From Psammoneis japonica (Eukaryota): a stretch of DNA of 38,867 nt. Position 1 is the first letter of the stretch; every line of letters starts with the position of its first letter. Shown piece by piece: positions 29 through 4,958 of this stretch. The DNA lies in assembly GCA_008632985.1 (NCBI GenBank), contig QPGO01000166.1, positions 124,001 to 162,867 on the forward strand, in the 5' to 3' direction. The notes beneath the pieces were generated by a model. The model saw only the letters and a list, made by a program, of their open reading frames with translations, was not told where the DNA came from and made no database searches. A program made the translations under genes and the position numbers.

Positions 29-196
29 TGACATCGGCAGGATTTGAACCTGCGCCAATTAAGAATACGACCTGAACGTACCGCCTGGATGGATTGGGTG
101 ACACGGGTCGAAATGATGTGAGAGAAGTGTGGAAAATGGCGGTAGGTGGTGTTCCCAGGATGCAGCACTGACCTTAGACCACTCGGCCACGATGTC
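29..196 (-). tRNA. tRNA-Leu(CAG), two exons (196-173 and 84-29) separated by an 88-nt insert in the D-stem
   Basis: Joined exons give an 80-nt cloverleaf: acceptor GACATCG/CGATGTC plus discriminator A, D-stem GCC/GGC, anticodon stem GTACG/CGTAT with loop TT-CAG-GT, long variable region, T-arm GCAGG-TTCAAAT-CCTGC. A-box TGGCCGAGTGG and B-box GGTTCAAATCC are intact. Confidence 0.93.
85..172 (-). other. GT-AG, spliceosomal-type intron inside the tRNA-Leu gene (about position 23/24)
   Basis: Minus strand reads AAG|GTCAGT ... TTCTCTCAC (126-118) ... CCATCCAG|GCG; removing it restores the D-stem exactly. Confidence 0.75.
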
Positions 197-220
197 TAGG
201 CATTTATGTGAATCTTTTGG

Positions 221-229
221 TATATAAAA
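221..229 (-). promoter_or_regulatory. TATA-like element 25-33 nt upstream of the tRNA
   Basis: TTTTATATA on the minus strand at the spacing typical of TATA-containing Pol III genes; it could instead serve the divergent gene at 356. Confidence 0.4.
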
Positions 230-355
230 TGTTTTTCTTTGTAGGGACTGGGAACTGAGAGGTCTGAATAAACTCCTCTGCAATGGCAGGTAGCAGCGCA
301 TTCGATACTCGAAGAGGACGTAAGGCCTTACATTACAGAAAGCAACACCAACACA

Positions 356-1207
356 ATGATATGGCGAAGACTTTTTCCCGCTGAAGGAGGAGGGGCTTTG
401 CGTCGATGGACCAGAGTAAAGAAAGATCTGATTGTGAAGGCACTCGACTCGGAGCATGTCTTGAAAGGTCCGATCACTATCTTCGATTTCGCGCAACATG
501 ACGATGCAGTCGATGCGGCCGCGGTAGATCATGGTCCAACCAAAGGAGGATGGCGAATTTCAGATGATGAAGTAATCGGAGGATTCTCGAGAGGGTCAAT
601 GTCACTGATTTATACACAGGAATGCTACAAGCGAGCAATGCGTGGAGAAAAGCCAGTTCCGATCAAGATCCAGGAGAAAACTGACCCACATTTTATACCC
701 TTTATTCGATGGAAGGGAAAGATTGATACTCGAATCGGAGAAAATAGTAGAGTGGCAAGGTCTGGCTTTTGTGCGATTCGATCGCCTGAATTTCCCATGG
801 GTGGTGCAGACCTCGAAAACAAGTACAATGCATTGGAATTACTGTGCAGAAGTGATGGGAGGGTTTACACGGTGAATCTAAAGGTATCGAGCTATTTTCC
901 AGATGACCTTTACCAGGCTATCATTTCCGTTCCTCCAACTCATCCAAACAAAAGTGAAATATGCGACAAAACTGGAGGAGAATTTGCGCAACTAGTCATG
1001 CCATTCCGAGATTTTCTTCTCACGGCGAACGGGCGAGTACGAGAAGTGCAACGCGAATTAGATGGCGGGGTTCGAATTGAACACATCGGCATTACTCTGA
1101 TGGATGGTGAGGACGGGGACTTTGAGTTTGATCTTGCCCGTGTCAGAGCAATCAATTACTATCACGGCGAAATTCTTGGAGAAGACGATGAAGATACTCC
1201 GTACTAG
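356..1207 (+). CDS. Complex I intermediate-associated protein 30 (CIA30/NDUFAF1) family protein
   Basis: Motifs [46 protein letters not shown] match the CIA30 domain; intact 283-aa ORF. Confidence 0.88.
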
Positions 1208-1371: not shown

Positions 1372-4300
1372 TTATGCCCGCTTTCTATCAGGCGGACAAA
1401 ACGTAGTCTTAACCATAAAGGAGAGATCTGGGATCTGACCCATCAATCGCCTCGCTGCATCCGTAACCTGTGTTTCTTCAGATTCCCCCGCCTTATTTGA
1501 GTCTATTTTGCCAACTTTACTGGGCGTACGGTTTTCGATGGGCTTCTTTGCAGGTGGGAGTGCCACAATTGTCCCTCCTGCAGAGGACCCAGTCGCTGGA
1601 GAGGAGCGACTCCCCACTTTACGCGTAGTTTCATTTGCAGCATTTCCCGTATCGTTGTTTGATTGGTTTGACTTCCTTGAAGCCGGGATACTCGCCCGCG
1701 GTCCCCGTTCCGTGGCAGGCTTTTTCGCCGGTGAAACATTTGCGCTTCCACCACTATTTCGATTGGCTATCTTAATTGCAAAAACGTCCGGCACCGCAAG
1801 TCTCCGGGGAGTTTGCTCTTGTCGCCGTTTCACACCTTCTCGAAATTCAGCCTCGGAAGACGACAATAACCCACCAATTCGAAACGAGAATGGCGTGTAT
1901 GAATGAATGCAATTGTTGACGACAACAGCACTCAGAGCGTCCTCTTTTCCCGCGCCTAGGTCTAAATTGGACGCAAGTCCATCACGAGACCAACGACGAG
2001 CTCTGGTATCTCTGCAAGGAGGACACGAACCCTATGATAGGTGGAACAAAAGCAAGATATCAGCACAAAACTATCTTCACTGGAGACAAGCAAAGGAGTG
2101 AGTTCTGACACCACTCTTACCAGAATTCTGCTAACAGCAACTCGTTCCTGGGTGTTCTCATGTATGTCGTCGTCGCTTTCGTCTTCCATATCCCGACCGA
2201 AAACTTTGTCAAACACGAGCTGGGAATTGGCCAAGAAGGAGTCGCCACCGTTTGCTCCAGAAGGCGGAGGAACGTTCTCTAAGGGCTCCGAGCTGTGCCT
2301 TGTTGTTTGCTCCCTTGGAGTTACAGATTCGAAGTCTCCAAACTCCCCAAACTCCTCGTCGCCATCAACTTCCCCACCAACCTTGTCTTCGGTTGGGGAT
2401 GCAACGGCAACTTCGGGAGGTCCAGCATCTTTAATAGCGTCGCTAGGCACTTCGCTGGTCGGTTCACAAAAGGACCCAAACTCCCCAAATTCGTCCTCTT
2501 CTTCTTCGGACGTGCCTCGCAAGTCCCCTGCTTCATCTAGTTTCTTCTCGCCAATCGTGGGCGGTTGTCAGATTCCTTTGCCTCGGTAAAGGTACCAAAG
2601 TCGCCAAATTCATCTTCGTCGGTTTCATCAGCAGCGTTTGCGGTTCCCGTCCCGCTAACTTTATTTTCATCCGCCACGTCGGAACGGCTATCCATATATG
2701 TTTGTCAGTTTTCGACAACACTGTACCATCTTTGGAAGACGCGAATTCGCCGAACTCATTTTGGTGTTCCGAAGCATCTAAGGCTGGCTCCGAAAACGAC
2801 CCAAAGTCACCAAATTCATCTTCTTCTGGAGATTTTTGTGATGCGGGCGGCCCCGAGTTTTCGTTTGAGGCTCCAGCGCCGCTGACTTTACTACCGTCCA
2901 TAACATCGGAAATGCTATCGACAGTCTGGCCGTCAATTTTCGACAACACAAAACTCTCTTTCGGAGACTCGAATTCAACGAACTCATTTTGAGGTCCCGG
3001 AGCATCTAAGACTGGCTCCGGAAACGACCCAAAGTCTCCAAACTCATTTTCCCCGGAGATGAATCCGGTCCTGATTTAATCTGCTGAATCTCTCTTTCGC
3101 CCCACTCGTGGTTTTCTTCCTCACCTTGGTCGACTTTCTCGACAGAGCCTTCGTCGGGTTCCGTGTTGATGCCTTCCCCTGGCGCTGTGTCTTGAGCGAC
3201 ACCAAAGTGAAATTCACCATCGTCTGCAATCGGAGTGCTTTTAGCTGCATTTACATGTAGTGGCTGACCCGATTTTCTACCTTCAGTGCCTGTCAACGCA
3301 GCATTATTGGCTGAAGAGCCAACGAAGTCATGATCTGTCATTTCGTCATTATCAGTAGCAAGCTGTCCGAATCCTTCAATTGGCGCTGCTGAAGCGACTG
3401 TGTCTTCCACAGCGTCAGGAATGAATTGTGAAGTGGCTTTGTCTGCTACATCCGCCTCTTCCATCGTGCCAAAATCGCCGAATTCTTCGTTCGTCAATTC
3501 AGTGCCTCCGGCTTCATCTTTCGTCGCGTCAGTCTTTGCCTCCACTGCTTCGTCCCCTAAATCTTGAGTTTCCGTCACATGGCCGTCACCTGATGTGTCT
3601 AATCTGTCTTGGGCCAGATCAATATGCGAATCTGCTTCGAAGATTCTTCATTGTTGGAAAGTGACGAGCTAGCCTTGTCTGAAGTAAACTCGCCGAATTT
3701 GTCGCTAGTGTAGATTCGATATTTTGCATCGATGTAGAATCGTCCTCCGAGAGGTTGTGTGAAGCGATTTTGGATGCATTATTGATGCGTGCCTCTTCGA
3801 AAGTGCCAAACCCACCAAATGCTTCCTTTTCTTCTTCTCCGCTTTCTATCTTGGACTGGCCGCTGAATAAGTCATCTTGAAGGTCAATGCCCGACGTCGT
3901 CGCAACGTCTTGGGTTGCTGGAGGGACTTCACTCATCTCTGTTGAGAAGAAGTTGGCTGTTTTGGGTTGGCAAACATTTTCGGTTGACTGAGCAAACTCA
4001 ATTAATGGCGCTTCTCTGGGTGTCTCTCCCGCGGCGCATTCGTCTGATGTTACAGCGGCGGGTAACGCTGAAGTATCCACGTCGTTGGTATTTGGATCAG
4101 TTGTATTATTCTCTGTTCCAGTGTACTGCAAATCTCCAGCATCGTCGAGACTATCATCAATCGGTACGGGAGATCTATCGTCTGAAACCACCGGTGATGC
4201 GCACGTACCGCTGGTTTCTTCGAGGGAAGCGCTGCCTTCTTCCGGGAGGAGCTCCGATGCAATCTGAGGCGTCTCCGAGACACTTGGTGGTGAGGCATCT

Positions 4301-4958
4301 CCGCCGCTAGATTGGGCGGCCTTTAGTTCATCAAAGACATGATCGGTTTTGCTTTCGGCGTCATCGATAACAACGCCATTGACGTCGAGGAGGCTGTTCG
4401 CGGTTTCAGTTGCATCTGCCGGGTCGGGCGAGCCTGTCACAAAATCTCTGATACCTATCGTCTCAGTAATTCCTTCACCATCATTGAGAGTTTTGATTTC
4501 TGTAGTTTCCATCAAGACGCCATTGGAATTGATGGCGCTTGAGTCATAGCATTCGTCTTCACAATCAGGTTTCAGTGTGCCAGCACTTGGCGTTGTTGCG
4601 TCATGTTTGATGTTGTTGTGCTCCTTTTCTTCGCCTTCCTTATCAAAGAAAAGCTCTTCAGCGACATCCTTATTTTTCTCTATCTCCTTAACATCATGGT
4701 CTCTTCTGTTTTGGGAATGGAGATTGCATTCTCGTTCTCGCTGAATGCGATGATACCATGAGCAGGGCTGCCACTAGAAGACTCTGTCGCGTTGTTATGC
4801 GACGGATGTACCACCAGGCCTTCAGATGGAAAAGGATCTTCGCCATTGCCAATCTCCTTTATTTTTGCGTGATCGTTCTCAAGGTCATTGCCAGCATCAA
4901 GTGACCCGAGCTGGTGTGCTTCCGCGTTCTCTTCCGGTTGTGCTTCCATAGCTGTCAC
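1372..4958 (-). CDS. Large acidic aftiphilin-like protein with repeated [DE]FG[DE]F motifs; frame broken by several single-base indels
   Basis: Consecutive minus-strand ORFs of the same composition carry many EFGDFGxF/EFGEFGSF motifs (gamma-adaptin ear-binding type); C-terminal IPDLSFM resembles the aftiphilin C-terminus. Start not defined. Confidence 0.6.

Follow-up and report, generated by a model that had tools for sequence, protein, structure and literature searches.

The stretch of DNA considered here, referred to throughout as the window, comprises 38,867 nt of contig QPGO01000166.1 (positions 124,001 to 162,867 of the forward strand) in assembly GCA_008632985.1 of the diatom Psammoneis japonica. 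Close to its first letter, on the minus strand between 196 and 29, lies a transfer RNA (tRNA)-like gene in two pieces: 24 nt (196-173) and 56 nt (84-29), separated by an insert of 88 nt (172-85). Exon 1 (173-196, minus strand) supplies tRNA positions 1-23, that is, the 5' strand of the acceptor stem, U8, the 5' strand of the D stem and the D loop, and the A box TGGCCGAGTGG can be read within it at 189-179. Exon 2 (29-84, minus strand) supplies positions 24-73 and contains the anticodon CAG (74-72), the B box GGTTCAAATCC (50-40) and, as its last nucleotide, the discriminator A (29). A run of six T residues, which reads as an RNA polymerase III terminator, follows directly after the discriminator (28-23). 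On the other side of the gene, 25-33 nt upstream of tRNA position 1 and thus at about -30, is the TATA-like element TTTTATATA (221-229, minus strand), which, by analogy with plant and fission-yeast tRNA genes, we take to be an upstream promoter element for polymerase III (or II).

The restored tRNA and its detection

An earlier note on this DNA had described a tRNA-Leu(CAG) split in its D stem by 88 nt, with A box, B box and T6 terminator intact, and this description holds: all three elements are present in the sequence at the positions given above, and ARAGORN calls an 80-nt tRNA-Leu(CAG) once the 88 nt are excised in silico. The restored molecule has seven Watson-Crick pairs in its acceptor stem, a 3-bp D stem, a 5-bp anticodon stem that includes one G-U pair, the anticodon loop UUCAGGU, a 5-bp T stem closed by the loop UUCAAAU, and a discriminator A. 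According to the ARAGORN call after excision and to reading of the sequence, the core positions A73, G37, U33, G18G19 and T54-C56 are all present, together with the A and B boxes. Because the three nucleotides AGG are repeated at the junction, there are four equivalent registers in which the insert might be cut out, all of which yield one identical mature RNA. Only one of the four has GT-AG ends, and this register places the insert in the 3' strand of the D stem, after tRNA position 23 and before position 24, rather than at the canonical position 37/38.

The gene escapes both ARAGORN and Rfam at gathering thresholds and, if it does need the spliceosome, would reveal a blind spot of tRNA annotation; the expectation voiced in the same note that standard scanners would miss it was correct. 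Run on the intact window, ARAGORN reports no tRNA at all, and Rfam has no match in the window at gathering thresholds. At a relaxed threshold, the Rfam tRNA model aligns to 188-29 with 18 bits (the gathering score is 29) and accommodates the insert as an 85-nt insertion in the D loop. When E values up to 10 are admitted for positions 1-300, three Rfam matches are found, namely the tRNA, a CRISPR repeat and Plastid-ycf2. The last of these, to the Plastid-ycf2 5UTR at 28-91 on the plus strand (16.9 bits against a gathering score of 65.7), was rejected as spurious, as it is the antisense of tRNA exon 2.

Pre-mRNA-type signals in the insert

The insert opens with a candidate 5' splice site, GTCAGT (167-172, minus strand), preceded in the exon by AAG, and the combined sequence AAG/GTCAGT (the slash marks the exon boundary) agrees with the consensus MAG/GURAGU at seven of nine positions. 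A candidate branch site, CTCAC (118-122, minus strand), is the sole yTnAy motif in the insert and lies within the 9-mer TTCTCTCAC, which places its A, at 119, 34 nt before the 3' end. The insert closes with a C-rich tract ending in CAG (85-101, minus strand), its terminus being CCATCCAG, and is followed by an exon G (CAG/G). The last 83 nt are free of internal AG, and the pyrimidine fraction over -20 to -4 is 0.65. The GT-AG ends and the placement of the branch-site A had been pointed out before and can be read from the sequence as described.

To put a figure on chance, all 76,958 88-mers of the window, on both strands, were used as a null. GT..AG ends occur in 263 of them; 8 of these match GTAAGT at five or more of six positions, and in 18 a yTnAy is well placed and is followed by a stretch lacking AG. 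The combined set of signals, which we defined as GT..AG, a terminal YAG, agreement with GTAAGT at five or more of six positions, a yTnAy 15-45 nt before the end and no later AG, is found in one 88-mer of the 76,958, and because of this we conclude from the counts that the insert's resemblance to an mRNA intron is not due to chance.

Two introns of protein-coding genes within the window provide a local comparison. One, of 80 nt (36480-36401, minus strand), interrupts the Hus1 gene, where tblastn against three homologues supports it and where it falls, in the numbering of the Trieres homologue, between residues 240 and 241; it begins ATG/GTAAGT, has CTGAC 33 nt before its end and terminates in TAG. 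The other, of 89 nt (34049-33961, minus strand), begins AAG/GTACGA, has CTCAC 28 nt before its end and is supported by frame continuity only. With its 88 nt the insert is near both of these fixed introns in length and in signals, a comparison with two introns and not with a profile. Lists of local introns drawn up from the continuity of open reading frames were too noisy to serve (one gave 1,081 candidates in 93 clusters), and the two introns above were those retained. The earlier note had drawn attention to a 9-mer shared by the insert and the intron at 34049-33961. The 9-mer does occur in both, with its A 28 nt before the end in the latter, but it carries no evidence of relatedness, being a match at chance level (blastn E=9). 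No second copy of the insert was found by blastn in the 38.9-kb window.

Two haplotypes

Contigs from three DNA runs of a single sample, likely the source of the window's assembly, were compared with the window over positions 1-400. A second version of 72-184 is present among them, in X1 record 4 (at a depth of 27.6, compared with 33 for the version identical to the window) and in X2 record 10. It differs from the window by 11 substitutions, all of which lie at 102-154, corresponding to insert positions 19-71, the central 53 nt. The 80 exon nucleotides, the outermost nucleotides of the insert (18 at its 5' end and 17 at its 3' end) and the branch-site 9-mer (118-126) show no differences, and the candidate 5' splice site and the 3' end of the insert are identical in both haplotypes. 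Exon 1 is likewise the same in both, and exon 2 lies inside one contig (1-101) without differences. One of the substitutions extends a run of four T residues in the insert (133-136, minus strand) to five.

The distribution of these differences is far from even. The insert has 11 in 88 nt and the exons none in 80 (Fisher p=0.0008), the confinement of all 11 to the central 53 of 88 nt has p=0.0024, and 26 signal positions are spared by all of them (p=0.016). The 5' flank (197-400) has four single-nucleotide polymorphisms (SNPs) and three indels in 204 nt, compared with 11 differences in the 53 nt of the insert interior, and the insert as a whole (11/88) is more variable than this flank (4 SNPs/204 nt; p=0.0005, counting SNPs only). 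Actively transcribed tRNA genes, as described in one study, keep their mature sequence while their introns and flanks are unusually variable, a property ascribed to transcription-associated mutagenesis (PMC6130373). The combination of a variable insert interior and unchanged exons seen here fits the pattern of such mutagenesis at an active tRNA gene, to judge from the sequences of the two haplotypes. Such a cluster could alternatively be the product of gene conversion from a paralogous intron that had diverged.

Discussion

The splice signals, the lack of a motif for the tRNA splicing endonuclease and of a stable fold (see below), and the distribution of haplotype differences together mark 172-85 as an insert with spliceosomal-type signals. 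The interpretation that we favor, at a probability of roughly 0.5, is that 196-29 is a working nuclear tRNA-Leu(CAG) gene whose D arm contains a U2-type (GT-AG) intron taken out by the major spliceosome; the corresponding proposal of the earlier note is thus supported in part. The signals and the constraint between haplotypes are features of the DNA itself, and from them we infer transcription, splicing and charging. It is a tentative corollary, which we would place a little short of even odds, that in this diatom lineage at least, one or more nuclear tRNA-Leu genes depend on the spliceosome for their maturation.

In the pathway we envisage, the gene would be transcribed from its own A box, B box and TATA-like element at -30 to the T6 terminator, with polymerase III reading through the T4 or T5 run of the insert; alternatively, polymerase II might start in the 160-bp promoter region common to the neighboring CIA30 gene. 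U1 would pair with AAG/GUCAGU and U2 with the CUCAC branch site (A at 119), and the lariat would be released at CAG/G, so that the end of exon 1, TCTAAG, would be joined to the start of exon 2, GCGGTACG. RNase P, RNase Z and CCA addition would then complete an 80-nt tRNA reading CUG, and CTG accounts for 31 of the 186 Leu codons in the eight reading frames with Pfam or homology support. As AAG/G is proto-splice-like, the intron would most likely have originated when an mRNA-type intron entered this site in the D arm by reverse splicing or by transposition. Removal of an intron by the spliceosome from a polymerase III transcript appears feasible, since the U6 gene of S. pombe, which polymerase III transcribes, carries an intron excised in this way, and spliceosomal introns are also present in the genes for the U1, U2 and U5 small nuclear RNAs (snRNAs) and in ascomycete rRNA genes (PMC5855946).

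Several observations weigh against a functional gene, and many of them would be equally at home in an alternative in which a real mRNA-type intron did land in a tRNA gene, through reverse splicing, transposition or an introner-like element, and the gene has since died or yields hardly any product, its transcripts stopping at the internal T run or staying unspliced and CUG being read by another Leu tRNA. The intron-like signals would be explained just as well by such an origin alone. The T4 run at 133-136, T5 in the second haplotype and unmentioned in the earlier note, is a possible premature stop for polymerase III and could halt it before exon 2. The insert increases the spacing of the A and B boxes, start to start, from 51 to 139 nt, and position +3 of the 5' splice site is a non-consensus C. 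Polymerase III transcripts are, moreover, generally held to be poor substrates of the spliceosome. The abstract of a 2026 preprint states that reporters dependent on the spliceosome cannot monitor Alu, a polymerase III transcript. CUG could be read by a tRNA-Leu(UAG), which would make the interrupted gene dispensable, and two other contigs of the sample have Leu-type tRNA ends with an unmatched anticodon arm, indicating that other Leu genes exist. The absence of differences from the exons (0/80) is not significant when set against the flank rate alone (p=0.06-0.2), and the two haplotypes, from a single sample that is probably the window's own, are not independent of the window. ARAGORN also shows the 11-nt variable region as unpaired, in contrast to the long paired arm of class II tRNAs; this may be normal for the organism, because the same region is found in a paralogous contig with three differences over 42 nt.

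On the other hand, a dead gene should not show 11 differences clustered in the center of the insert that spare both the exons and the insert ends (p=0.0008 and 0.0024), and here nothing is damaged in the promoter, the terminator or any tRNA core position. Active transcription would also fit with an intron that varies more than its flank (PMC6130373). We regard loss of function as unlikely, while recognizing it as the most serious of the alternatives.

The other Leu-type contigs of the sample raise the possibility that the locus arose by rearrangement. Twelve contigs were compared (identity classes 8/1/3/0), and those not described here in detail are at least 99% alike on their matched parts. 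One paralogous contig matches only the tRNA ends, at 23-64 (with three differences) and 172-196, a pattern that would be expected of an uninterrupted Leu-type gene with another anticodon arm; its match reaches 172 because the first G of the insert equals G24. Another (depth 47.8) matches exactly 29-58 and 166-196, the latter comprising exon 1 and the first seven nucleotides of the insert. The contigs of the locus itself end at 195 and begin at 167, and because this is where a 31-mer graph would break, the 31-mer made up of exon 1 and GTCAGTG is probably common to at least one other locus with unlike sequence beyond it. This hints at a small family of such genes, and under the reading we favor the contig at depth 47.8 may represent another Leu gene that bears an intron and has kept its 5' splice site, although it could instead be an uninterrupted tRNA that by chance reads GTCAGTG at positions 24-30. 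No contig of the sample shows, over 1-400, a joint that skips exactly the 88 nt, a result to be read with the caveat that contigs show presence and not absence.

In a rearrangement, the 5' 31 nt of the locus would derive from an uninterrupted paralogue and would have been joined, by way of filler DNA, to the 3' portion of a Leu(CAG) gene; positions 25-31 of the paralogue would read as they do by chance, and the GT..AG appearance would be partly coincidence. The exact matches of the contig at depth 47.8 and the breaks of the locus's own contigs at 195 and 167, which are what a 31-mer shared with another locus gives, are in keeping with this. It requires, however, a Leu-type tRNA with U25 and C26, whereas the tRNA here has C25 and G26 and the match of the other paralogue stops at 172. 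The sequence shared past exon 1 amounts to 7 nt only, and the branch site, the AG-free tract, the terminal CAG, the typical length and the conserved 3' end of the insert would all be left unexplained. We consider a rearrangement improbable.

More improbable still is chance, with 88 nt inserted at random into a tRNA pseudogene and beginning with GT and ending with AG by coincidence. This is a single locus picked from a very large scan, and GT..AG ends are found in as many as 263 of the window's 88-mers, but the full signal set is found in just one, and both the exons and the insert ends are conserved between haplotypes.

Finally, other types of intron can be considered. Diatom genomes are partly of red-algal ancestry, a circumstance that might favor a non-canonical tRNA intron cut by the tRNA splicing endonuclease and sealed by ligase, of the type found in red algae, nucleomorphs and archaea; a length of 88 nt is great for that type. 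A recent review places D-arm sites of this kind in Cyanidioschyzon, Chondrus and the Guillardia nucleomorph (PMC13578239), but with no bulge-helix-bulge (BHB) motif in any register that restores the tRNA and with an insert that is less structured than its shuffled counterparts, we find this the least credible of the explanations. Specifically, a BHB fold with 3-nt bulges and a 4-bp central helix, which the earlier note had named beforehand as evidence that would overturn its proposal, is absent: of the 4 pairs that would make up the central helix, registers -2, -1, 0 and +1 have 1, 1, 0 and 1, respectively. Five relaxed BHB-like arrangements elsewhere in the precursor were rejected, as none restores a tRNA; they illustrate the ease with which such matches are found. 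The minimum free energy of the insert is -5.8 kcal/mol (z = +1.25), with 187 of 200 shuffles folding equally well or better, and RNAalifold finds no intron structure common to the two haplotypes. A 10-nt pairing, 90% complementary, between insert positions 26-35 (138-147) and the 3' junction with the start of exon 2 (76-85) is probably not maintained, and we judge it to be non-functional because 4 of the 11 haplotype differences break that arm. Neither a group I nor a group II intron family is among the Rfam matches in 1-300 at E values up to 10, and the insert has only 88 nt.

Relation to known systems

The closest parallels are perhaps the introns of fungal U6 genes, in which, as here, a short GT-AG intron with a branch site lies inside a small and highly conserved non-coding RNA gene. 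In fungal snRNA introns only the splice signals are conserved, and reverse splicing is the standard proposal for their origin; among the non-coding RNA genes with spliceosomal introns listed in the same review, there is no tRNA (PMC5855946). The present host differs from U6 in being a tRNA, which is not known to touch the spliceosome's active site and has a dedicated intron system of its own. A second parallel is with Cyanidioschyzon merolae, Chondrus crispus and the nucleomorph of Guillardia theta, where algal nuclear tRNA introns also lie outside 37/38 and are also missed by scanners. Those introns have BHB-like junctions (PMC13578239), whereas here there are none and instead there are GT-AG ends, a branch site and an AG-free tract.

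A third comparison is with introners, spliceosomal introns of transposon origin known from Micromonas, stramenopiles, dinoflagellates and fungi (PMC11282704), which are likewise short inserts that carry splice signals, and the AGG repeat here resembles a 3-nt target-site duplication. Unlike introners, the insert has no terminal inverted repeats at its ends, despite the 3-nt AGG repeat, and no second copy in the 38.9-kb window. The AGG repeat would be expected of any intron in an AG/G site, whether or not it is an introner. An experimental precedent may also exist: Koehrer, Vogel and Domdey (EMBO J, 1990) reportedly observed splicing by the mRNA pathway of an engineered yeast pre-tRNA carrying a pre-mRNA intron, a construct that is said to have been artificial, with the intron replacing the natural one in the anticodon loop. 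Such a result would make the mechanism feasible; the arrangement considered here is a natural one, in the D arm.

For photosynthetic eukaryotes, a 2026 review names only three kinds of interrupted nuclear tRNA genes, namely those with introns at 37/38, those with BHB-like ectopic introns, and the permuted genes of Ostreococcus and Bigelowiella (PMC13578239). PlantRNA gives tRNA introns in Phaeodactylum for eight amino acids, and Leu is missing from the list in the figure legend, to which this statement is confined (PMC3531208). A 2025 paper describes the three types of nuclear intron as 'completely unrelated' (PMC12530127). The literature searched, which took in few subscription journals and no supplements, yielded no case of a natural tRNA gene with a spliceosomal intron. 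Within that literature, mRNA-type introns in non-coding RNA genes are of a known kind, and a tRNA host would be the first case.

What makes the locus of interest is that in textbooks and current reviews spliceosomal introns and tRNA introns are regarded as unrelated systems that act on separate classes of transcript (PMC12530127; PMC13578239). If our interpretation is right, the polymerase III/tRNA pathway would meet the pre-mRNA splicing pathway in a natural gene, and polymerase III genes with mRNA-type introns would extend beyond U6. Such a gene would offer a clean in vivo test of the splicing of polymerase III transcripts other than the spliceosome's own RNAs. It would also bear on the birth of introns, such as through reverse splicing at AG/G sites of abundant RNAs. 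Genes of this kind would be systematically invisible to scanners, and apparent gaps in algal tRNA sets may stem from them. If the gene is dead instead, the locus would still offer a dated case of a non-coding gene that received an insertion resembling an intron.

Distant matches and neighboring genes

A scan of metagenomes with the anticodon loop and T arm returned 19 loci, in 18 of which ARAGORN calls an uninterrupted tRNA-Leu(CAG); it calls none in the remaining one (L019). The Leu(CAG) loci have D arms and acceptor stems unlike those of the diatom gene, and we read them as prokaryotic; there is no diatom relative of the gene among the 19. In three of them (L009, L011 and L018), a tRNA-Leu(TAG) and a tRNA-Leu(CAG) stand in tandem, about 55-56 nt apart. 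These arrangements are probably prokaryotic and are unrelated to the diatom gene, having been matched through the common T arm only. Exact scans of genome and viral contig collections with a 38-nt stretch of exon 2 and with the D arm plus a GTNNGT junction gave 0 matches.

The window is nuclear DNA of a diatom. Its reading frames have Pfam matches to CIA30, TAF10, a bromodomain, the KDEL receptor, 2OG oxygenase and Hus1, and the best named relatives of the Hus1 protein are those of Odontella aurita (65% identity) and Trieres chinensis (63%), with no protein from the window's own genome among the homologues found. The CIA30-domain gene (356-1207, plus strand; Pfam E=8e-20), with a likely start codon at 356, is divergent from the solitary tRNA gene. 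About 160 nt separate tRNA position 1 from this likely start, and the promoter region is thus held in common. A reading frame that runs across the tRNA locus (59-559, minus strand) looks spurious on inspection. Farther along, at 1375-4773 on the minus strand, there are five long reading frames in different frames, the end of each overlapping the next. None of them matches Pfam, and nothing between them makes a convincing GT-AG intron of normal length; frameshifts in the assembly or unusual introns may be the cause.

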